Assembly (NCBI GenBank): GCA_965228485.1
Contig: OZ245819.1
Coordinates: 90,001-122,000 of the forward strand
Length of the DNA stretch: 32,000 nt
From: Candidatus Saccharimonadota bacterium
Lineage (GTDB): Bacteria > Patescibacteriota > Gracilibacteria > UBA4473
Reading direction: 5' to 3'
Positions 7,034 to 31,999 of this stretch are shown in pieces (the first letter of the stretch is position 1; each line of letters begins with the position of its first letter). Both the position numbers and the translations under genes were made by a program. The notes beneath the pieces were generated by a model. The model had not been told where the DNA came from and did no database searches. It worked only from the letters and a program-made list of their open reading frames with translations.

Positions 7034-7795
7034 ATGGCAGTAACTGCAGCACAAGTAAAAGAACTTCGCGACCGAACAGGGGTTGCAATGATGGCGTGTA
7101 AAAAAGCGCTTGAAGAAGCTAACGGTAATATGGAGGAAGCTATTGAGATTCTTCGAAAACGAGGAGCCGCTAAAGCTGCTGAAAAAGCTGATCGATCAAC
7201 TGGAGAAGGTCGAGTAGCGATTTCAGGACGAGTAATTGTTAAACTCCTTTGTGAAACAGACTTCGTAGCAAAGAATGAAAACTTTATTGCTTTTGCTCAA
7301 GAAGTAGCAGACAAAGCTTCTACGGATGGTGTTGAAGCCGCTAAAGATCATTTTGAGTCAGTAAAAACTGATAAAATTCAAGAAATTGGAGAAAATATTG
7401 TATTAGAAGATACTCAAGAAATTGAAGGAGGTGATGTTCTTGGAGGATACGTTCACTCAAATGGGAAAATTGCCGTACTTGTTGCTCTTGAAGGAGGGGA
7501 CGAAGAAAAAGCAAAAGATGCAGCAATGCATGCAGCGGCTATGAATCCATTAGTTGCACGACCTGATGAAGTAGATCAAGCTCTAATTGATAAAGAAAAA
7601 GAAATTGCTCGAGATCAACTTATTAATGAAGGAAAACCAGAAACTATTATCGACAATATTATTGCTGGTAAAATTAAAAAATTCTGTGCTGAACGAGCAC
7701 TTGTTTCACAAGCTTTTGTAAAAGACCCAAGCGTGACGGTTGAAGAACACCTTGGAGACGCTAAAGTTGTAGGATTTGTTCGAGTAGAAGTTTAA
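7034..7795 (+). CDS. tsf: Translation elongation factor Ts
   Basis: The N-terminal UBA-like block [40 protein letters not shown] is present, then [12 protein letters not shown] and HAAAMNP. Confidence 0.95.
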
Positions 7796-10572
7796 TCGCT
7801 CTGTAATTGTAAAAGTGCACGAGCTCCATAATTCCCTTTCAGGATAGCCTGAGAGGGATTTATATTATTATAGGCACTTAGTGGTACTTGGCTCATGTCG
7901 ATTCCAAGTGCTTCTTGGATTTTCGCAATAGTATTTTGATATCGAGCAAATCTTAATGGATAGCCTTCAGCACTTGTTCTTGAAAGTAAAGAGTTTGCGG
8001 AATTTTCCGTGATTATGCGTAAAACGTATGATAGATCTTGTGATGTTATCCCTGCTGATTTTATTTTTTGTATAGCGGGCTTGTTGGAATTCCAGTTTTC
8101 TTTTATGAACATTACAACACCTCTTACTGTGTCATAAAACAATTCATTATCTAGATTTCTAGATTCGTATGATATGTCTCCAGGCATTGAAGGTTTCCAC
8201 TCAACCTGAAAACCTCCAACGAATTTTTCGGTATCTAGTGATGAATCTTTGTCTGATCCATCAGAAGAAAGAAGTCCAATTTCCTGAGCTACAAGGATCC
8301 AGCGGTTATAGTCTTCAATTGTTCGAGCTACCGTTGGATTTGGGTTGTACATGTTGGCCAGAATTCTTGCTTGGTGAATAATAGAGTTGGACCAGGTTGT
8401 GCCCGTTAGTTCTGCGATTGACTGGGCTTGGGATAAGTTGCTTCTATTTAGTGTTTGTGCGGCGATAAGACTTGCTTCTGGACAATTAATTAGAAAACTT
8501 TCGATCATTTCTTCAATTTTTCGTCGATCGTCTTTGTTGTCTACGGCGGTTTTTATGGTTTTAATGGTGTCTTTATGTTTTTTATAGAGTTTAGGGTGCT
8601 CAATAAAATTTCGATAAAATCTATTAAATTTTATTCGAACAAGACTTTCTTGTGTTTGCATTTCTCCTACGGATTCTTCATCCGTGAAATCAAAAAAATG
8701 ATCACCAGGTAATAGGTTGTCAAAAATTCGAGATCTGGCATTTCGGTTTAGTGGATCTGGCCATTGTTCGTTACCAGCTTCATTTTGCCAAATAGCAATT
8801 AAGGTTATTTGATCTCGTGGTTCAGGTGCAACTCTTCTTAAAAAATCATAATTAAATGGGAAGCCTTCTGGTATCTGGATTCCACTTTCTTGGAAAATTT
8901 TTTCATTTTCTTTTTGGTGCTCAGAAAAGGCTTTAATTGCTTTTTCTTTAATACTATCAGCAATAGTTTTTTCTAAGAAAAAAACATTATTGATAGTAAT
9001 TGATTGACCTAAATTTATGCCGCTTTCTAAAAGAGCGCTCACGTAAGAGTTAGGGTCACTTTTTTTTATGTCTTGAGTGAGGGTCTGAAAAATTTCTGGT
9101 GAACTTTGAAAAAAGTATCGAAGTTCTGCTGGTGAAGCATTTAGACTTGGTCCAAGTAGTCTGCCTATAAAATCCTGAAGTTTTTCAGGTGGCTGAGTTT
9201 CAACAATTTGTTTTTCTCCTGCAAAATTGGTTTTTAAAATATCGTAATATTTGTCTATGGCTTCACGATTTTTAAAGATTGGAATTTTTTGTCCGGTACG
9301 TAGATTTTGTGGATTAGTGTTAAAGAGCCAGTAGTATATTTGTTGTAGTTTAAAGTAGTTTTCACTAAAGGCCGGAACATCACCATTAAGGTGTTTGGTT
9401 ATTATTTCCGAGAAACTTTCTCCATTTTTATATTCATGATAGTCAATATTTTCGTTTTGTAGCCCAGTTATTTCTGGGTGATTAAAATAATCACTATATG
9501 GTGGATTGAGTCTGGCGGCACTGACAGCCGTGAATAAAGGCTTTTCTTGATATTTGGTGAGCAAAGTTAGGGTAAGGCTTTTTTTGCGGAGTTCTGGGCC
9601 AAATGATTCTTCTAGGAATGTGTCATGAATTATGATGTTATTTCCAGCGGGGGTATTTAATACTTCTGACAAAGAATTTGTATTTCCAGAGTCATTAAAT
9701 TCAACCATAACTTTTGCTATGAGTGGATTTTGCCAGTCTATACTATCTCCAGATCGAAGGTAAAATTTTTCTAGTGTTTGTTTTACTGTTCCATGGCCTG
9801 GGTAGAGCCGGCTTTCATTTGGAAGAGATATTACTGAATGTGAATTAGGATCGATGTCACTATTTCTTCGTCCTGCTTGGATTATATCTGATGAATATGA
9901 AGTTCGAGCATAGTGAAGTCCTAAAGCTTTAGGCGTATCATCGAGTTTGATTCTTTCAATATATGTTTTTAGATGTTGTTGGTAGCCTGGAGAGTTGAAA
10001 TCAGGTGCTGTAATATTATTTCCACGGATTTGTAGGAACTTTTCTCCATTACTAATTTCTTCTGCAAGATTATTTTTTGTGAGATAGGGGATTAGAGTCC
10101 AAGCATCCTGGCTGAGAACGCCTTCATCTCCAGTAATATAATAGAGGTGGTATCCTGTGAATTTAGCACAAAAATCCCTTATGTCGCTTCGGGTTTCTTT
10201 TTGTGATTGAATGACTTGTCGGACTCTAGCACTTCTAAGTTGAGGAAATGCTACTAAGTGAGGGAAAGGTATTTCGGTCATTGGAAGAGATCGAGTTTTT
10301 TCCTCCTCTGGGAATGGGCAACTTGTATCAAACTTATTTTTAACACTTAGTTCTATCCCTTCGTTATACACTAAGAATTGCCCTGATTTTATATCAAAGA
10401 AATTTCCATTTTCGGTTTTTAATTGTAGTTGTGATATTTCTCTCCAGATTTGCTCGTTAGTTTTGTTCTCAAAAAGTTCATGATCGAGCTCTCTCAAAGC
10501 ATCATAAATACTGTTGTGCTGATCCGATATTTCAACGGCTTTTGTAGCCCCGCATTCATGAATTTCACCCAT
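7792..10572 (-). CDS. Large hypothetical protein (926 aa), no recognisable domain
   Basis: The ORF is long and uninterrupted, with ordinary amino-acid composition. I saw no signal peptide, TM helix, P-loop or metal-binding motif. It is last in a same-strand string after nth and the PH-like membrane protein. Confidence 0.75.
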
Positions 10573-17670: not shown

Positions 17671-18915
17671 ATGAGAAGAGTAGTTGTAACAGGACTGGGG
17701 ATCGTATCACCACTGGGCGCAGATGCCCAAACGGTGACAGCCGCGCTGCAGGCAGGAACGTCGGCAACACGACTTGACCCAGTTTTCAAAGAAATGGGTT
17801 TTCGGTGTCATGTATCAGCGCCGATTCCAAACCTGGCCGAACTGGCCGAGGAGCTTGATCGGAAGCAGAAGAGCTTCCATGGCAAGGGGGATACCCTGCT
17901 GATCGGGCACCTGGCTATGGCTCGGGCGGTTGCGGACTCGGGTCTGACTCTGGACCAAATTTCGGATCCGATGGTCGGCCTGTACTGCGGTACGGGCGGT
18001 CCTTCGACGGAAGATCAGGTTCAGGCGGTCAATACCACCATCGAAAAAGGTGGCCCAAAACGTATGGGGCCGCGTATGGTCACGCCGACCATGAGCTCCG
18101 GTCTACAAGCGGTGCTGTGTACGCAGTACCAGATCAAGGGTCTGAACATTTCGATGACTTCCGCCTGCGCGACCAGTGCTCATAGCATTGGGGAAGCCTG
18201 GTGGGCGATTCGGACGGGGCGGCAGAACATCATGTTCGCCGGTGGTTCAGAAGATTGCCACTGGACAAAGGCCTGTGGCTTCGACGCGATGCCGGCACTT
18301 GCTCAGGGGTTCAACGATTCGCCGGAAGTAGCCTCTCGTGCTTTCGATGCTGGCCGGAGTGGCTTTGTCGATGCGGCTGGCGGCGGGATGATCGTTCTCG
18401 AAGAGTATGAGGCGGCGAAGGCTCGTGGCGCCAAGATCTACGCGGAGCTTGTCGGATACGGGGCCAACTCTGACGGCGATGATATGGTCGCTCCTTCTGG
18501 GGAAGGCGCTGAGCGGTGCATGAAAATGGCGCTCTCGACTGTTGATGGTGACATTGATTACGTCAACCCGCACGGAACGTCCACGCCGGTCGGTGATGTC
18601 AAGGAGGTCGGGGCTCTGGCTTCGATCTTTTCCGCAAGACAGGAGGCGCTTCCGCTTTTGGCTTCCACGAAGTCGATGACGGGACATGCTCTTGGCGGCG
18701 CTGGCGTGACTGAAGCGATCTACACGTTGCTGATGATGCAGGGGGACTTTGTCGCTCCTTCGATCAACATCGATGAGATCGACCCGGAAATTGCCGCTTT
18801 GGGCTGGACCGATTTCATTCCACGTGAAGCCCGTGAACGCAAAATCCGCCAGGCGCTCTCCAACAGCTTCGGCTTTGGGGGGACAAACGCCTCTCTGGTT
18901 TTTGCGGCCGTCTGA
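17671..18915 (+). CDS. fabB: 3-oxoacyl-[ACP] synthase, KAS I/II family (FabB-like)
   Basis: It appears collinear by eye, end to end, with E. coli FabB as I recall it: VVVTGLGIVSPLG, SACATSAH (Cys166), GGSEDCHWTKACGFDAMPAL, DMVAPSGEGAERCMKMA, NPHGTSTPVGD (His301), SMTGHALG (His339), SNSFGFGGTNASLV. The Cys-His-His triad is intact. Confidence 0.9.
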   Translation: MRRVVVTGLGIVSPLGADAQTVTAALQAGTSATRLDPVFKEMGFRCHVSAPIPNLAELAEELDRKQKSFHGKGDTLLIGHLAMARAVADSGLTLDQISDPMVGLYCGTGGPSTEDQVQAVNTTIEKGGPKRMGPRMVTPTMSSGLQAVLCTQYQIKGLNISMTSACATSAHSIGEAWWAIRTGRQNIMFAGGSEDCHWTKACGFDAMPALAQGFNDSPEVASRAFDAGRSGFVDAAGGGMIVLEEYEAAKARGAKIYAELVGYGANSDGDDMVAPSGEGAERCMKMALSTVDGDIDYVNPHGTSTPVGDVKEVGALASIFSARQEALPLLASTKSMTGHALGGAGVTEAIYTLLMMQGDFVAPSINIDEIDPEIAALGWTDFIPREARERKIRQALSNSFGFGGTNASLVFAAV

Positions 18916-22025: not shown

Positions 22026-22799
22026 ATGAATTTTTCTCAGATTAATTTCAGTGTCTTTGCTCTAAAGATTTATGGAATTTTACTTAGTATTGGTTTTTTA
22101 ATTGCTTCATTACATTTTTATAAATCCTTAAAGGCTGAAAATTTTTCTGAAGATTTTTTTATTCACCATTATTGGCGATGGCTTTTAGGGGCATTATTGC
22201 TTGGAAGATTATTTGCGGTATTACTCAACCCAGAAATTTTTGAGGTTTTTGGGATTTTTTCTTTTTTTGCTTTTTGGGAAGGAGAAGTGAGTTTCTATGG
22301 GGCTGCTTTGGGATTTGTTCTTACGATGTATGTTGATCTCAAAAAACATAAAAAATCATTCTGGAAGTGGGCTGATTTGGGAGTTCCATCTTTTTTGATT
22401 GGAGTTTTAATTATGGATTTGGCGGCTTTTTTAACTGGGGCTATTTATGGAACTGAAACTAATATGCCGTGGGGAATTCAGTATGAGACTTTTGGAGTTG
22501 AAATTATTAACCCTGTACATCCCGTAACGCTGTATGCCTTTGTTTTTCATTTAATCTTACTTCAATGGGCAAGGAAGCTTTATGAACCTTATAAAAAGAC
22601 ACCTGGACGGTTATTCCTTAAGTTTTGTTTATTCTTCTTCTTAGCGGATTTCTTTTTACAGTTTATCCAGGGAAATGCAGTTTTGGTTTTAGGCGGACTT
22701 AAGGCTGGTCAATGGGTCGATCTACTTGTGGTGCTTGTGGCCCTTTGGATTCTTTATGCTAGAAGTACGATTGCTCGTCTTAAAAAACGTTCGGCGTAA
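22026..22799 (+). CDS. lgt: Prolipoprotein diacylglyceryl transferase-like polytopic membrane protein
   Basis: The 257-aa ORF has about 7 TM helices. The order of YGILLSIGFLIA, LLLGRLFAVL, VSFYGAALGF and GTETNMPWG resembles the Lgt blocks (YG..., GGRLG..., LSxHGG, ...PWG). It is divergent, and the G-R-x-G-N-F block is not conserved. Confidence 0.6.
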   Translation: MNFSQINFSVFALKIYGILLSIGFLIASLHFYKSLKAENFSEDFFIHHYWRWLLGALLLGRLFAVLLNPEIFEVFGIFSFFAFWEGEVSFYGAALGFVLTMYVDLKKHKKSFWKWADLGVPSFLIGVLIMDLAAFLTGAIYGTETNMPWGIQYETFGVEIINPVHPVTLYAFVFHLILLQWARKLYEPYKKTPGRLFLKFCLFFFLADFFLQFIQGNAVLVLGGLKAGQWVDLLVVLVALWILYARSTIARLKKRSA

Positions 22800-23525
22800 C
22801 TATTGTATGCACCAGTTAATTGGAGTGATTTTTTTACTTTCTAGAAACTGGTTGGTTGCCGAGAAGTGTTTACATCCAAAAAATCCTGAATGAGCCGAAA
22901 AAGGTGATGGGTGAGCAGCTTCTAAAATAAGATGCTTCTTTTGGTCAATCAGTACTTTTTTTGATTGAGCAAATCTACCCCAGAGTAAGAAGACTAAGTT
23001 TTCTTTTTCTTCAGAACATTTTCTGATGACTTCATCAGTAAAGTTTTCCCATCCTTTGCCGCTGTGTGAGGTGGGGGATTTGTGTCTTACGGTTAAGGTG
23101 CTATTGAGTAATAACACCCCTTGTTCTGCCCAGGTCTCAAGATTTCCGTGCATTGGAATATCGCAGCCTATGTCGGTATGAATTTCTTTGTAAATGTTTT
23201 GCAGACTCGGTGGAATATTAATTCCCTTATTTACCGAAAAACTTAATCCATGAGCCTGTCCTGGACCATGATAAGGATCTTGGCCTAGAAGTATGACTTT
23301 TGTTTTATCAAATGAGCACTGATTAAACGCATTAAAAATAAGTTGTGGTTTTGGATATACCACTTGTTTGGCTTCTATTTCTGAAATAAGAAAAGATTTA
23401 AGCTCTCTAAAATAATCTTTTTCAAACTCATCTCCAAGAATAGTTTTCCAGCTGTCTTCGATTTGAATATTTCTGGAAGTCATAATTGAGAATATTAACC
23501 TCTTCTGTCGGCTAGATTCTTCCAT
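22800..23525 (-). CDS. ung: Uracil-DNA glycosylase, family 1
   Basis: GQDPYHGPGQAHGLSFSV (catalytic Asp), PPSL, LLLNSTLTV and the HPSPFSA His loop are present. The true start is probably Met15 (23483), which removes the 31-nt overlap with secF. Confidence 0.94.
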   Translation of the reverse strand: MEESSRQKRLIFSIMTSRNIQIEDSWKTILGDEFEKDYFRELKSFLISEIEAKQVVYPKPQLIFNAFNQCSFDKTKVILLGQDPYHGPGQAHGLSFSVNKGINIPPSLQNIYKEIHTDIGCDIPMHGNLETWAEQGVLLLNSTLTVRHKSPTSHSGKGWENFTDEVIRKCSEEKENLVFLLWGRFAQSKKVLIDQKKHLILEAAHPSPFSAHSGFFGCKHFSATNQFLESKKITPINWCIQ

Positions 23526-24394
23526 TCAGCGAGCATTGGAGCCGCAATAAAAATGGAAGAATAGGTTCCTACGGCAATTCCTACGGTCAGAGCTAGTACA
23601 AAGAAGAAGATAGAATCCGCCCCCCAGATAAGGAGTGATATTAGCGGTAGAAGTGTAGAAATAGAAGTGTTAATAGACCTTGTAAGTGTTTGTTGAACAG
23701 AGTTTTCGATAGTGTCTTCAAATGTTTCACTTGCTTTTTGAAGTCGAATATTTTCTCGAACTCGGTCTAGGATTACGATGGTATCATTTACAGAGAATCC
23801 AAGAGTTGCCAGTAAAGCTGTGATAAAGGGGAGATCGAGTTCTACTTGATAGATAGCTCCTAGAACCACAAAGATACCGAAAACAATCGCGATATCGTGA
23901 AATAGTGCAATAATGGCCACTCCTCCAAACCGCCAAGGATTAATGGCTTCAGGGATTCTTCTAAATACAAAAGCCACGAAAAGGATAATTCCTGCTAAGG
24001 CCGTCAAAATTGCGTAAAGTGACTTTGTTTTAAAACTAGCTCCAATAGTGGCGTCTACCTTTCGATAAGAAACCTCTGTGAAGTTTCCAACTTGGTTTCT
24101 TAAGTTTTGAGCAATAGATTGAATAGTTTTATCGTCTAGGTCCTGGATTGTAATCAGGAATGTATTGTTTTCTGAAGGTTGAACTTTTACTTCTTTTGTT
24201 AGGGCTGCCTCATTAGCAAAGAAGTTGGTAAGTTCTTCTTGATTTATAGTTTCTTCGAATTGGATATCCCATCGAGCTCCTCCGATGAAATCCAATCCGA
24301 GTTTTGGACCGATTGTAAAGGCTGCAATTAGACTGGCAGCAACGAAACATCCTGAGATAGTGAACCAAATTTTTCGGGTGGCAGTGATATTCAT
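23495..24394 (-). CDS. secF: Protein translocase subunit SecF
   Basis: LGLDFIGG is near the N-terminus. It has a periplasmic P4-like segment and then the conserved 5-TM block, including GFSVNDTIVILDRVREN. Confidence 0.92.
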   Translation of the reverse strand: MNITATRKIWFTISGCFVAASLIAAFTIGPKLGLDFIGGARWDIQFEETINQEELTNFFANEAALTKEVKVQPSENNTFLITIQDLDDKTIQSIAQNLRNQVGNFTEVSYRKVDATIGASFKTKSLYAILTALAGIILFVAFVFRRIPEAINPWRFGGVAIIALFHDIAIVFGIFVVLGAIYQVELDLPFITALLATLGFSVNDTIVILDRVRENIRLQKASETFEDTIENSVQQTLTRSINTSISTLLPLISLLIWGADSIFFFVLALTVGIAVGTYSSIFIAAPMLAEWKNLADRRG

Positions 24395-24434: not shown

Positions 24435-26597
24435 TTATTTTTTTCGTTTTCGAACTTTTGCACCAACCGTTTTCTTTTTGTGGTTGATACTTGACTCTGA
24501 CACTCCAAATAAATTTGGATTTTGCATTCCAGGGATAAGAATGAGTAGTCGAAGTAAATTTCGAGAAATTGTTACGGCTGTAAACATTGAAAGGAGTGTT
24601 CCAACAATTAATGTAATAGCGAATCCTTTTACTACAGAACTTCCCAGAGAGAAAAGAATAATACAAGTGATTAGTGTCGTTAGATTTGAGTCTCGAATAG
24701 CTGTCCAGGCTCTTTCAAACCCTAAATCAATGGCTTGGCTCAAGGTTCTCCCTCGTCGAAGTTCTTCTTTTAATCGTTCGAAGATAAGAATATTTCCATC
24801 AACCGCTAATCCAATAGATAGGGCGATACCAGCGGCACCTGCAAGAGTGAGAACGATTGGACCACCAAGAGATGTTGGCCAGACTTTTAGGAGGGTAATA
24901 AATAGTGCAGAGTAGAGAAGGAGGGCAATTGCAGCCACAATTCCTGGAATTCGATAGATCAAAATCATAAAGAGAATGGTTGCCGCTAGTCCTAATACTG
25001 CAGCTTTGATACTTTTATTTAGTTGATCAGCTCCAAGTTCGGCTTGAATTGTTGTTTGTCCACTAAGGATTACAGGCGCATCAATAGCCCCAAGATTCAG
25101 TCCATCGGATAATTCTTTGGCTTCTTCGTAGGTGAAACTTCCTGTGATTTGTGCGTTTCGACCTGAAATCTTTTCACTTACGTACGGAAGGCTAATCCAT
25201 TCACCTCCAACCTTAATTCCAAGTCTACAGTTTGTATTATTACATTGTTGAGCGGCTAACTGTTCTGTGATTTGAGCAAATAGCCTTCCACCTTCACTGT
25301 CGAATCTTAGATCAACGAGAGGACTTCCAACTTGGTCATATCCTACTCGAGCAATTTCTAGCTGTCCTCCTCCCAGCTCGGTTTCTGACCAGGTGATATC
25401 ATCTTTATTCCATGATAAAAGTTCGTACGTAACTTTTTTGGTTGGTTGAACGGCTGTCAGTTCTTTTTGTACAGCCTGCACATCAATAATGTGGAAACCA
25501 AAATCAGTTTCGATAACTTCCTCAATAAGTTGAGGTGTCTCCAGAGCAAAAACAGCATCATTAAAAGGTCCAACCATACTTCCTGGCTCGAATTCACCTA
25601 AATCTCCACCGCTTTCGGCTGATGGTCCAGTTGAAAATTCTTTTGCTAATTCTGCAAAATCTGCACCATCTTTAATTTGTTGTAAAATTTCTTCAGCTTT
25701 TGCTTGAGCTTCCTCTTTACTGGCATAAGGAAGTTCCTCAGGAGCTCTCATGGCTTCTGGATGAGCAATAAGAATATGTCGTGCAGTAGCTTTTGCTGGG
25801 GTGGTGCTTTCTTTATCTTCTTCTGTTACGGCTGTTAGTCGAGCAATCCCAAGCATATTTCGTGGAAATGGAGATCCTTCAATGGTTAGTTCACCAGACT
25901 CATTAACGGTAAAACTTGGTTGAATAGTAGTATCAACAATTTCTTGAAGGACTTCTCCTGGAGCTAGTGTTGCTAATTTTTTCCCGAGTTCAGCATCTTC
26001 CATTTCATCAAGGAAGACTGGTCCAAAACTTTCCAACAAAGCACCTCTTTGAACTACATATTCAGGAGCTTTTTGCTCCCAATTTTCAGCATTGATATCT
26101 GTAGTGAGCCACTCAGCAATTTCTAGTCGTTTTCCAACGATGGCTCCAGGGTCTTCAGCGTAGAACTCTAGTCGATTGTCTTTTTCGGCATCACTTTTTG
26201 CTTGTTCTACATTTGAAGAGGGTGGCATCTGGATGAGAATGTGTTCTTCATTATTGATCTGAGATCTTTTAACGATAATTTCTCCAATTCCTGCTGGATT
26301 CACCCTTCGCTCTAGAGAATCTCTTACCGATTCTGAAATATCATTAATACTTACATCATTGGTTGGATCATCATCATTGTTTTGAGTAAGAGCATCCGTA
26401 AGATCTATTTTATAGTCTAGCTCTGTTCCTCCAGCGAGGTCGAGACCAAGAGTAATTTTGAAATTTTCTAATCGTTGAACGATTGATGAATCGGATCCTG
26501 CTATTTGAGCAATCCAAGAAGACGGGACGCTAAACACTCCAGCAATAAGAGCGATTGCGATCACAAAGGCAAAACGGTTAAGGATCTGTTTTTTCAT
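24435..26597 (-). CDS. secD: Protein translocase subunit SecD with an inserted parvulin-type peptidyl-prolyl isomerase domain
   Basis: SecD blocks are present: LGLDLAGGTEL, the P1-head-like GSPLVDLRFDSEGGRLFAQIT...ITGSFTYEEAKELSDGLNLGA, and the TM block LAVDGNILIFERLKEE. Residues ~270-376 (25470-25790) read as a parvulin domain: ARHILIA..., GADFAELAKEFSTGPSAESGGDLGEF, MVGPFNDAVF, TDFGFHII. Confidence 0.9.
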   Translation of the reverse strand: MKKQILNRFAFVIAIALIAGVFSVPSSWIAQIAGSDSSIVQRLENFKITLGLDLAGGTELDYKIDLTDALTQNNDDDPTNDVSINDISESVRDSLERRVNPAGIGEIIVKRSQINNEEHILIQMPPSSNVEQAKSDAEKDNRLEFYAEDPGAIVGKRLEIAEWLTTDINAENWEQKAPEYVVQRGALLESFGPVFLDEMEDAELGKKLATLAPGEVLQEIVDTTIQPSFTVNESGELTIEGSPFPRNMLGIARLTAVTEEDKESTTPAKATARHILIAHPEAMRAPEELPYASKEEAQAKAEEILQQIKDGADFAELAKEFSTGPSAESGGDLGEFEPGSMVGPFNDAVFALETPQLIEEVIETDFGFHIIDVQAVQKELTAVQPTKKVTYELLSWNKDDITWSETELGGGQLEIARVGYDQVGSPLVDLRFDSEGGRLFAQITEQLAAQQCNNTNCRLGIKVGGEWISLPYVSEKISGRNAQITGSFTYEEAKELSDGLNLGAIDAPVILSGQTTIQAELGADQLNKSIKAAVLGLAATILFMILIYRIPGIVAAIALLLYSALFITLLKVWPTSLGGPIVLTLAGAAGIALSIGLAVDGNILIFERLKEELRRGRTLSQAIDLGFERAWTAIRDSNLTTLITCIILFSLGSSVVKGFAITLIVGTLLSMFTAVTISRNLLRLLILIPGMQNPNLFGVSESSINHKKKTVGAKVRKRKK

Positions 26598-26809: not shown

Positions 26810-29105
<2,296 letters not shown>

Positions 29106-29443: not shown

Positions 29444-29446
29444 AAA

Positions 29447-31999
29447 ATGACAGGAAATATTCGACAGGCTATCGACAATATTGGAGCGGCTCAGGTTGAT
29501 TTTGATGGTGATCGAGATCAAGAGACGTTGAAGCAGCATGAAGCCACTAAAGAAGAACTAGATAAGCACTCACAAGGAGTGGAAGTGGCTGATAAAGATC
29601 TTCAAAATGCTGTTAAATCTTGTAAGGATTTAATAGAAAGCCTAAGAAGCTCAGGAGCAGATTCCACGGAAACAGAAGCTTCAATTCGTCAGGCTTTGCA
29701 AGAGGTCACAGGGGGGAATCAAGCGGAACTTGATTGGCTATTGAAAGAATCAGGTATTGATATCTCGAAATTAGATACCACTGGAGAGGCTAAATTTGGA
29801 TCGGATGATCTGCTTGGAGCTGTTGAGACTACCACAGAAGGGCCAGCGAGACATGAACAAATGTTTGCAATTCTTTCTGGTTTGAATGGAGCTTCTACTC
29901 AAGCTCAACAATTATTTTCTCAGGCACATTTTTCTCGTTATGAAACCTCGACTGATCCAGTAGAAAAACAAGGGGTTCTAGATGATTGGGTAACTTATAT
30001 TCAGAGTACTTTGGTTAAAGAGAGAGAGATGAAAGAACCTGAAAAAGCTTTGGTAACTGCAGCAGAAAAAGTACTAGCTGATTTGGATGGAATAACCACG
30101 GCTCCAGAAACAAGAGATGCGGGCAGAGATCAAGCACCAGAATCTACAGAAACAGTAGAGACTAACAAAGTTGCTATGGCGGCTCTTGCAGAGTTTCTTG
30201 GAGTTTCGGCTGATAGCCCTGAAGCGTTAAAGTCTGCTCTTTCGACAAAACTTCAAGCAGAAGGAGGGCCAAAAGCCGTTTTAGATTTTATAAGTGGTTT
30301 GAAAAATAATGCTTCTCTTATTTCTAGTTTAGCTGGGAAATTCCCTTTTTCAGAAACTGCAGTAAAACAAGCTTTTGAACAAGTTTCTAAAGCAGTTTTA
30401 GGAGATTTGCAAAATGATTTTAAAGACGGTGTTCCTGATAAGTTAGATAAAGAAAAAGCTGATAGGATGGCGGAAGGAGTTGTAGAAGGTTTAGATTCAT
30501 TAACACCAGATCAGCCAAATCCTTTTGAGATGCCTGATTGGGCGCCCGGGAAAGCTCAGGAGAGAATATCAGATTTATTTACCAATTTTCCAGATATTGT
30601 TTCCACTGATACAGAGCAGTTAACTACGGATAAAGTTGAAAAATATTTGAAAGGTATATTAGAGAAGGCTTTAAGTTCTAATGATGCTGACGCTTTAAGA
30701 AAGCTCGGTAGTGTGTTAGGATTCTCATTTAGTGAGACCGATCCTGAGAAACTTAAAACTCACATTAAAGAGAATGAATCTGAAATTATGAAAAGAATTG
30801 GTGAAGTTGCCAAAGAAGCAAATGGAAAAAGTAAGGCAGAAGCTCAACGAGAAGCTATTGAAGCCAATCAAGCAAAAGCAAGTGAGCTTATTGATCAAGC
30901 CGCTAAAGAGTTTCCAGAGCATGTGGGAACGCCTCGATGGGAGCGTTGGGTTAATAAGTTAGCGAATGGAGAAACACAAAAATCTTTTGCCGAATACTTA
31001 GCTGAAGATGAACCTGTGGAAGGTTTAGAAGTCATTATTTTAATGCTTAAAAAACTGTTTATGCAGTTTAAAAGTTTGATGGATAGCTTTGGTAAAAAAG
31101 AAGGAGAAACAACTCTTTCTGAACAGTTGCAAGCGGATGTAGATGCTGCAAAAGATAAAATTAAAAATGCTTATTTGGGTAGATTGGGAGAAGAGTTTGG
31201 TCTAACAGCTGAACAAGTTGAGGCTAATCGTGATGGATTAAGTTTTGTTAATGAGAATAGAGATTTATTGGGAGCTGTTCCTAATTTGAATATAGCAGGG
31301 ATGGATCTTAATGGAGATGGGCAGATTACTCCTGCTGAAAAAGTACAAACACTTCAGTCTATGTCGCCAGATCAAAGAGATGTATTAAAAACACTTCTTC
31401 GTTCAGTAGAACAAAAACCATACATGAAAGATGTATTACAGGCTGGATTGGATGGTACAACTATTGATGCCATTTATGATTTTGAATCTAATATGTCTGA
31501 AAAAGATAGAACTGCTGATATTAAAGTTGAAGGAGGAAATCTTGTGGTTAATGGGCAAACAGTAGAGTTGAAACCAGGTAACGATAACGCCATTAAAGAT
31601 TTATTAGAAGCAACTTTAAAAGATGAAGATGGAACTTTGACAACTGTAGAAAGAGATACTACGACAGTACGAAATAGTTTAGAACGTGGAGAAGTTAAAG
31701 GTGAAATTGAGCTTGATGGAGTTCATATAAAAGTTGGAAAGGAAGAACCTATTACTAAAGAATTCTTTGATAAAGCAAAAGCCGCATTGGGGGCTAATCC
31801 AGATTTAGCAAAAGCTTTAGAAGAAGGTTTATCATTAGCTACACTTGAGAAATTTATGAAAATTTTAGAAGACCCAAGAGCCGTGAAAGAGGAGTATGTC
31901 GAGTTTAGAAATGGATATATTAACCTAGATAGTTCAGAATGGTTTGAATGGAATGATGCCTTTGATTATGGCGGTAATTTATTAAGTAAAGAAGCACGT
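29447..31999 (+). CDS. Very large acidic hypothetical protein, 5' partial view (>851 aa, runs off the window); not in supplied ORF track
   Basis: I read this frame codon by codon from the ATG at 29447 to 31999 and found no stop. The product starts MTGNIRQAIDNIGAAQVDFDGDRDQ... It is rich in E/D/K/A/L and has no signal peptide or TM helix in the visible part. It contains one canonical EF-hand loop, DLNGDGQITPAE (31304-31339). The only track ORF here (30725..30922, minus) is antisense to it. Confidence 0.8.
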   Translation, partial: MTGNIRQAIDNIGAAQVDFDGDRDQETLKQHEATKEELDKHSQGVEVADKDLQNAVKSCKDLIESLRSSGADSTETEASIRQALQEVTGGNQAELDWLLKESGIDISKLDTTGEAKFGSDDLLGAVETTTEGPARHEQMFAILSGLNGASTQAQQLFSQAHFSRYETSTDPVEKQGVLDDWVTYIQSTLVKEREMKEPEKALVTAAEKVLADLDGITTAPETRDAGRDQAPESTETVETNKVAMAALAEFLGVSADSPEALKSALSTKLQAEGGPKAVLDFISGLKNNASLISSLAGKFPFSETAVKQAFEQVSKAVLGDLQNDFKDGVPDKLDKEKADRMAEGVVEGLDSLTPDQPNPFEMPDWAPGKAQERISDLFTNFPDIVSTDTEQLTTDKVEKYLKGILEKALSSNDADALRKLGSVLGFSFSETDPEKLKTHIKENESEIMKRIGEVAKEANGKSKAEAQREAIEANQAKASELIDQAAKEFPEHVGTPRWERWVNKLANGETQKSFAEYLAEDEPVEGLEVIILMLKKLFMQFKSLMDSFGKKEGETTLSEQLQADVDAAKDKIKNAYLGRLGEEFGLTAEQVEANRDGLSFVNENRDLLGAVPNLNIAGMDLNGDGQITPAEKVQTLQSMSPDQRDVLKTLLRSVEQKPYMKDVLQAGLDGTTIDAIYDFESNMSEKDRTADIKVEGGNLVVNGQTVELKPGNDNAIKDLLEATLKDEDGTLTTVERDTTTVRNSLERGEVKGEIELDGVHIKVGKEEPITKEFFDKAKAALGANPDLAKALEEGLSLATLEKFMKILEDPRAVKEEYVEFRNGYINLDSSEWFEWNDAFDYGGNLLSKEAR

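Follow-up and report, generated by a model that had tools for sequence, protein, structure and literature searches.

The window analysed here is a stretch of 32,000 nucleotides from a Candidatus Saccharimonadota bacterium (contig OZ245819.1, positions 90,001 to 122,000), and it carries a secD gene for a translocase subunit whose extracytoplasmic P1 domain contains a parvulin-type peptidyl-prolyl isomerase (PPIase) domain. The secD open reading frame (ORF; Table 1) encodes a genuine SecD and forms a complete pair with secF, which lies 40 nt downstream in another reading frame. The protein scores 306.1 bits with the NCBIfam family TIGR01129 (secD; cutoff 244.4), in a match to profile positions 1-397, and its 299-aa neighbour matches TIGR00966 (SecF) with 263.9 bits (cutoff 160). 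The Pfam domains of SecD follow in the order SecD_1st, Rotamase_3/Rotamase, SecDF_P1_head and SecD_SecF_C. The P1 head (PF22599) scores 69.8 bits (cutoff 27) and the C-terminal domain (PF02355) 42.7 bits (cutoff 20.5), while the SecD_1st match is below its cutoff in the window protein (23.4 vs 27) and above it in relatives. When an AlphaFold2 (AF2) model of SecD, built from an input alignment of 25 homologs (mean predicted local distance difference test, pLDDT, 84.9; predicted template modelling score, pTM, 0.54), was compared to the PDB using Foldseek, SecDF crystal structures ranked first (5YHF, E=9e-20). An Asp of SecD and an Arg of SecF are known proton-pathway residues. Asp600 of the window SecD is invariant across 25 sequences and aligns with the AVDGN Asp of Thermus thermophilus SecDF (3AQP; numbered 340 by counting along the printed alignment), and in SecF both Arg239 (TLTRS) and Asp204 are present.

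Table 1. Coordinates of secD, its segments and secF in the window.
Feature	Position (nt)	Strand	Remarks
secD gene	24435..26597	-	720 aa, ATG start, TAA stop, 0 in-frame TGA
N-terminal membrane anchor, aa 1-25	26523..26597	-	AF2 helix 2-23
P1 base N-terminal part, aa 46-149	26151..26462	-	Alignment to T. thermophilus SecDF; weak Pfam SecD_1st at 91-149
Insert first part, aa 150-266	25800..26150	-	Fast-evolving alpha/beta region, without Pfam family
Parvulin (PpiC-type) domain, aa 263-375	25473..25811	-	Pfam, fold match, active-site alignment
Parvulin key codons	His274 25776-25778; Gly324 25626-25628; Thr364 25506-25508; His369 25491-25493	-	
Insert return segment, aa 379-404	25386..25463	-	Long beta-strand 380-397 into P1 head
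P1 head subdomain, aa 405-506	25080..25385	-	Pfam PF22599, E=2e-19
SecD C-terminal transmembrane domain, aa 515-685	24543..25055	-	PF02355; Asp600 codon 24798-24800, motif AVDGN
secF gene	23495..24394	-	299 aa, TIGR00966

The parvulin domain is recognized by two Pfam families, Rotamase_3 (PF13616; E=2.2e-27, 96.3 bits against a cutoff of 22.5) and Rotamase (PF00639, aa 274-374; E=5e-24, 85.5 bits against a cutoff of 21.7). The nearest solved parvulins by sequence are the P2 domain of SurA (E=3e-17) and PrsA (E=3e-15), along with Pin1 and PpiC. Foldseek superposed the domain on the PPIase domain of Pin1 with a root-mean-square deviation of 1.4-1.7 A over 112-113 columns (target TM-score 0.85-0.87, 38-40% identity), which is far above chance level. 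The initial annotation, made from the DNA letters, had proposed such an embedded domain at 25470-25790, which corresponds exactly to aa 270-376, and all the motifs it quoted (ARHILIA, GADFAELAKEFS, SAESGGDLGEF, MVGPFNDAVF and TDFGFHII) are present in the minus-strand translation. It had also pointed to a domain scan as a possible refutation; the Pfam scan instead called the parvulin, in agreement with the Pin1 superposition at ~1.5 A. Bacteria of the candidate phyla radiation (CPR) are not known to have an outer membrane and, if they have none, the word 'periplasmic' used for this loop should be 'extracytoplasmic'.

Aligned to other SecDs, the insert comes to ~255-273 aa (aa ~135/150 to 404/407), more than twice the size of ~105 aa first described. 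Residues 46-134 of the window SecD align to residues 31-102 of T. thermophilus SecDF and residues 408-685 to its residues 160-425, and ~273 residues thus stand where the T. thermophilus connection from base to head has ~57; relative to the short SecDs of other lineages the gap spans aa ~150-400. As the insert follows the match to the P1-base model and precedes that to the P1-head model, its site is the P1 base/head junction. In the AF2 model the parvulin has an unusually long beta-strand on either side (246-266 and 380-397). The whole module may be described as one intact parvulin preceded by a fast-evolving region, maybe a decayed second copy. Region 150-266 may represent such a copy, without the N-terminal strand: in hhalign it matched the parvulin of the same protein with E=4e-5 and free parvulins with E=2e-4, both in one colinear register, while controls gave only E=0.01-0.16. 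Cross-matches in hmmsearch point the same way, as do relatives with a Pfam-significant Rotamase match at the position of this region. Against a decayed copy, a Foldseek search with the isolated AF2 model of 150-266 gave no match (best E=0.31).

The check on phyletic distribution proposed by the initial annotation revealed that the fusion is not unique to the window but common in assemblies labelled CPR/Patescibacteria, where it occurs in several variants. A 100% identical protein (P0001) is found in NCBI/ENA on a contig of 1.295 Mb, and all of the 120 listed homologs, which are 39-66% identical and come from many independent assemblies, combine Rotamase and SecD Pfam domains and, where named, are recorded as 'protein translocase subunit SecD' of Candidatus Gracilibacteria or Patescibacteria. 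The GC content is 0.39-0.43 in each segment of the window secD. A locus scan, limited to one genome per species, kept 80 loci, 15 of which (L001-L014 and L021) carry a parvulin in frame after the N-terminal part of SecD and before the head, and the insertion site (SecD_1st/P1_head) is identical in every fusion scanned. The labels of these 15 loci are Gracili-, Peregrini-, Magasanik-, Falkow- and Moranbacteria and Parcubacteria/Patescibacteria, with two odd ones, 'Candidatus Binatia' (L004, DATJFD010000021.1) and 'uncultured Gammaproteobacteria' (L005, CAYMVY010000002.1). The latter two look unreliable because their SecDs are 51-59% identical to fusions from Magasanikbacteria/Patescibacteria. 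Two of the 15 loci, L004 and L012, have an unusually high GC content (0.64-0.65). SecDs free of the insert were found in the same scan under labels of Saccharibacteria, Doudna-, Curtiss- and Giovannonibacteria, Melainabacteria and Chloroflexota.

In a census, the parvulin and the head (aa 263-506) were used as a query against 1.84 billion representatives. Among the best 150 matches, at least ~35-40 clusters (50% identity) comprise proteins 540-1100 aa long that match over parvulin and head alike; those of them checked by a domain scan or a look-up proved to be SecD or SecDF fusions, all taxonomic names among these being Patescibacteria. Short multi-stretch matches in the census were considered as free parvulins of the lineage and rejected, being unrelated multi-parvulin proteins of other phyla; as their rank is inflated by summed domain scores, they are uninformative on the lineage. 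The public names noted for the fusions are 'SecD', 'SecD/SecF fusion protein' and, in one case, 'peptidylprolyl isomerase', which constitutes a blind spot of annotation. The last name belongs to the source entry of P0184 (MEK7145599.1), a protein of 615 aa that spans parvulin and P1 head and whose relatives are named 'SecD', so that the naming of this architecture is not consistent.

The variants differ in the number and the layout of their parvulin units. Proteins of the Peregrinibacteria type (L002:886-4062, L003:5281-8697; P0158, P0169, P0215) are single SecD-SecF chains of 1040-1140 aa with a parvulin insert, one parvulin each in L002, L003 and P0158. The Magasanik/Falkow type (L004:5890-8040, L005:5824-7869, L006:5983-8025, L009:5908-7977) has two Pfam-significant Rotamase stretches directly behind SecD_1st and ahead of P1_head. 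The short SecDs of the Moran type (564-629 aa; L011:5995-7686, L012:5368-7254, L013:5869-7569, L021:760-2520, and also L014) have a single Rotamase match whose start falls at profile position 28-38; their first strand, which bears the His (HSAHILIAKK / YRASHILFKK), comes after the last strand (FGWHIIKK) and not before it. When the trailing strand was moved to the front in silico in four of these proteins, the Rotamase_3 match was extended to positions 14/15-116 in all four, and in three of them the PF00639 match grew to 1-96, with a gain of 2-4 bits each time. These longer and higher-scoring matches support a circular permutation, and the Moran-type parvulin accordingly appears, from its strand order, to be circularly permuted. 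The tandem form is likely the duplication intermediate for this permutation and plausibly also for the layout in the window. The tandem and permuted variants are a neat case for the study of domain evolution.

The active site was mapped using a Pin1 sequence and HMMER alignments to solved parvulins. His274, His369, Leu333, Phe345, Met341 and Thr364 are taken by us to be the equivalents of Pin1 H59, H157, L122, F134, M130 and T152, respectively. The two His, Leu333 and Phe345 are kept in all 120 listed homologs and Met341 in 119 of them, while position 364 is Thr in 93 and Ser in 27. The catalytic Cys/Asp position (Pin1 C113) is occupied by Gly324, within FSTGPSAESGGDLG, which is aligned to the Asp of SurA P2. 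The initial annotation, which credited the insert with all the hallmarks of a parvulin rotamase, thus went too far, as the catalytic Cys/Asp is missing. The mean identity to the window protein is 55% in the parvulin and 63% in the P1 head, compared to 29-33% in the parvulin flanks. Such conservation suggests a binding pocket under strong selection, with catalysis uncertain in the clade of the window protein. No SurA_N-type domain was matched by Pfam in SecD at E<=0.01. The module may act like the PrsA, SurA and PpiD chaperones, yet it is not a member of that group as the SurA_N-type helical module is missing. Eight gracilibacterial proteins of 780-880 aa (P0075, P0083, P0092, P0094, P0095, P0098, P0100 and P0102) have extra inserts within the parvulin, namely a long, acidic loop of low complexity and, behind the first strand, a helical segment; four of the eight show an additional hydrophobic segment of ~60 aa in the transmembrane domain (LPNIP.DLY.YFVK.WW...).

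The interpretation considered the most probable, with fair though far from full confidence, is that this protein is a functional SecD of the proton-driven SecD-SecF motor in which the parvulin module serves in cis as a translocon-proximal holdase/foldase. Being embedded in the extracytoplasmic P1 domain, the parvulin is tethered on the outer face of the membrane, and known SecDF biology suggests its proximity to SecYEG. The P1 head is described as the substrate-binding, moving part of SecDF in literature cited in PMC7793623. The module would bind unfolded chains emerging from SecYEG, prevent their back-sliding or aggregation, and pass the chain to the adjacent P1 head, or receive it from the head, while the head would pull the chain using the proton-motive force. 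One polypeptide could in this manner do the work of PpiD and SecDF in E. coli/Vibrio, of PrsA in Firmicutes, and of the Mdp dome and SecDF in Mycoplasma. With Gly324 in place of Cys/Asp, binding or chaperoning is expected to be the main function and isomerisation to be weak or absent in this clade; the residue pattern thus favours a role as holdase and in handover over efficient isomerase catalysis for the clade of the window protein.

Several observations weigh against this interpretation. Many CPR-labelled lineages have a plain SecD. Among the 120 listed homologs the Cys/Asp position is Gly in ~40 (STGPS-type) and Glu in ~70 (STE..), and catalysis may be impaired. In one Gracilibacteria chromosome (OY760935.1, L041:5035-7161) the insert is of similar length but the parvulin is decayed: all Rotamase matches are sub-threshold, and the strand matching ARHILIA reads KEIFVA, with the first His gone. 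In that lineage, at least, such decay implies a domain that can be dispensed with or that has a purely structural role. Also, the AF2 model, given its pTM of 0.54, does not fix where the parvulin lies with respect to the head and SecYEG. The initial annotation had put a foldase directly on the moving head, which goes further than the model allows: the insert is at the base/head junction, and a model with this pTM does not fix the geometry between domains.

A more far-reaching proposal, possible but doubtful, is that the insert is an ancient innovation of single origin, belonging to a large part of the CPR, that replaces free chaperones of the PpiD/PrsA type. It would be mechanically coupled to the proton-driven swing of the P1 head in a one-chain machine for pulling and holding or folding, and its variants would record a natural circular permutation of the parvulin fold by duplication and loss. 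The variants meant are the tandem form, the form with one copy decayed (the window protein) and the single-copy form with the His-bearing first strand behind the last strand.

It is rather unlikely that the module instead has a structural or regulatory role without catalysis or substrate binding, as a brace, spacer or lid at the P1 hinge, either tuning the movement of the head or lengthening P1 to span the CPR cell envelope. An insertion exactly at the base/head junction, the two unusually long flanking strands, the loss of the catalytic Cys/Asp and the degenerate domain of L041, where the length of the insert is kept, are what such an element would lead one to expect. However, the proline pocket (Leu333/Met341/Phe345) and both His are essentially invariant across 120 diverged sequences, which is hard to square with a spacer, and the two most distant fusions retain the canonical Cys (P0119, HSDCSS) or Asp (P0120, YTDDPS).

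Less likely still is a fully active PPIase at the translocon exit, replacing lost free PrsA/PpiD and with catalysis as the selected function. Three of the four residues of the hydrogen-bond network (the two His and Thr/Ser) as well as the hydrophobic pocket are conserved, the identity to the catalytic domain of Pin1 reaches 38-40%, and fusions would be favoured in reduced genomes. Gly324 in place of Cys/Asp nevertheless speaks against this possibility, as do the dispensability of PPIase activity for the function of SurA and PrsA in vivo and the inactivity of the parvulin domain of PpiD. The functional importance of the latter domain has also been doubted (PMC9643414). Finally, an artefact, be it a chimeric assembly or a frameshifted join of secD and a separate parvulin gene, has virtually no credibility, given the single uninterrupted frame, the uniform GC, the identical protein on the 1.295-Mb contig, the same domain order in 120 of 120 listed homologs and the recurrence of the insertion site at 15 genome loci, which together counter the misassembly raised in the initial annotation.

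Compared to known systems, the window SecD resembles the canonical SecD/SecDF (3AQP/5YHF; E. coli SecD) in its N-terminal transmembrane segment, P1 base and head, C-terminal transmembrane bundle with Asp, and SecF partner; the canonical T. thermophilus SecDF differs in the shorter base-head connection given above, which has no parvulin module. PrsA (Firmicutes) and SurA (Proteobacteria) are, as noted, the nearest solved sequence relatives of the inserted parvulin. Their parvulin is inserted in a helical N/C chaperone module, which is missing in the window SecD. SurA likewise has tandem parvulins, one of which is inactive. The PpiD(-YfgM) assembly with SecYEG/SecDF is similar in being a membrane-tethered, parvulin-containing chaperone at the translocon exit. 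PpiD, however, is a separate protein with its own transmembrane anchor and SurA-like chaperone domains, whereas the window SecD holds only parvulin unit(s), covalently within SecD, and no SurA_N-type domain was detected in it. The dome of Mycoplasma pneumoniae (Mdp444/436/489), whose host is genome-reduced and wall-less with a single membrane, likewise couples parvulin-type foldases physically to SecDF. This dome is non-covalent and consists of large lipoprotein Mdps with duplicated SurA-like and PPIC units that form a folding chamber, in contrast to the one or two parvulin units inside the window SecD.

The partnership itself is known from experiments. In E. coli/Vibrio, PpiD can be cross-linked with SecD and acts together with SecD/F both in translocation and in the release of the VemP arrest, and a handover of the chain from PpiD to the P1 head has been proposed (PMC7793623, PMC9643414). 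In M. pneumoniae, cross-links connect the PPIase Mpn444 with SecD, and SecYEG-SecDF is covered by a dome of PrsA-like Mdps (10.1101/2024.09.05.611430; 10.1101/2025.04.25.650208). The Rosetta-stone link between SecD and parvulin put forward in the initial annotation therefore holds, as the parvulin chaperone PpiD contacts SecD and cooperates with SecD/F, and Mdp proteins sit on SecDF. Full-text literature searches, which did not extend to the InterPro architecture tables, gave no paper describing a SecD-parvulin fusion, in line with the initial annotation, which knew of no characterised example. Both parts and their partnership are known, while the covalent form that extends across a lineage seems, like its variants, not to have been described. 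The handover between SecDF and chaperone has so far been modelled mainly from PpiD-SecD cross-links and low-resolution tomography of the Mycoplasma dome. A natural single-chain SecD-parvulin offers independent evolutionary evidence that the partnership of parvulin and P1 head matters functionally. It also offers a compact object of fixed stoichiometry for cryo-electron microscopy and mutational study of the handover, and contributes a trait specific to the lineage to what little is known of envelope biogenesis in CPR bacteria.

The genes surrounding secD in the window are of a housekeeping nature and include an NAD-dependent DNA ligase (27042..29090), a uracil-DNA glycosylase (22800..23525), Lgt (22026..22799), CTP synthase and RuvB. 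No second parvulin is present within the 32-kb window. In a search with a YajC query, YajC was undetectable in the window and in the CPR loci and was found only in Chloroflexota loci. An 86-aa ORF at 26810..27070 (-), considered as a conserved upstream partner (YajC-like or an arrest peptide), was rejected, having no Pfam match and no counterpart in the fetched loci. This ORF has predicted membrane segments and lies between ligA and secD, overlapping ligA by 29 nt at the 3' end of the latter. Neither an Rfam scan nor a tRNA scan of the window gave a match.

The name Gracilibacteria is associated with a recoding of UGA to Gly. Genetic code 25 was suspected because the closest named relatives are labelled 'Candidatus Gracilibacteria', and was rejected: there are 0 in-frame TGA in 8,957 codons, as opposed to 564 TGA trinucleotides in any frame. 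The stops of 25 confident window genes are TAA (16), TAG (6) and TGA (3), and ORF extensions under code 25 resemble junk. The window uses the standard genetic code.

Three further genes of the window stand out. A 926-aa ORF at 7792-10572 (-) has no Pfam match at E<=0.001, and an ORF at 29444-31999 (+), which runs past the 3' end of the window, encodes more than 852 aa of an acidic, Glu/Lys/Ala-rich protein without Pfam family. A beta-ketoacyl synthase gene at 17671-18915 (+), with the N and C domains of ketoacyl-synt in Pfam, is one of the three window genes with a TGA stop; its GC content is 56%, compared to ~38% elsewhere in the window, and by its composition it looks like a horizontal acquisition.

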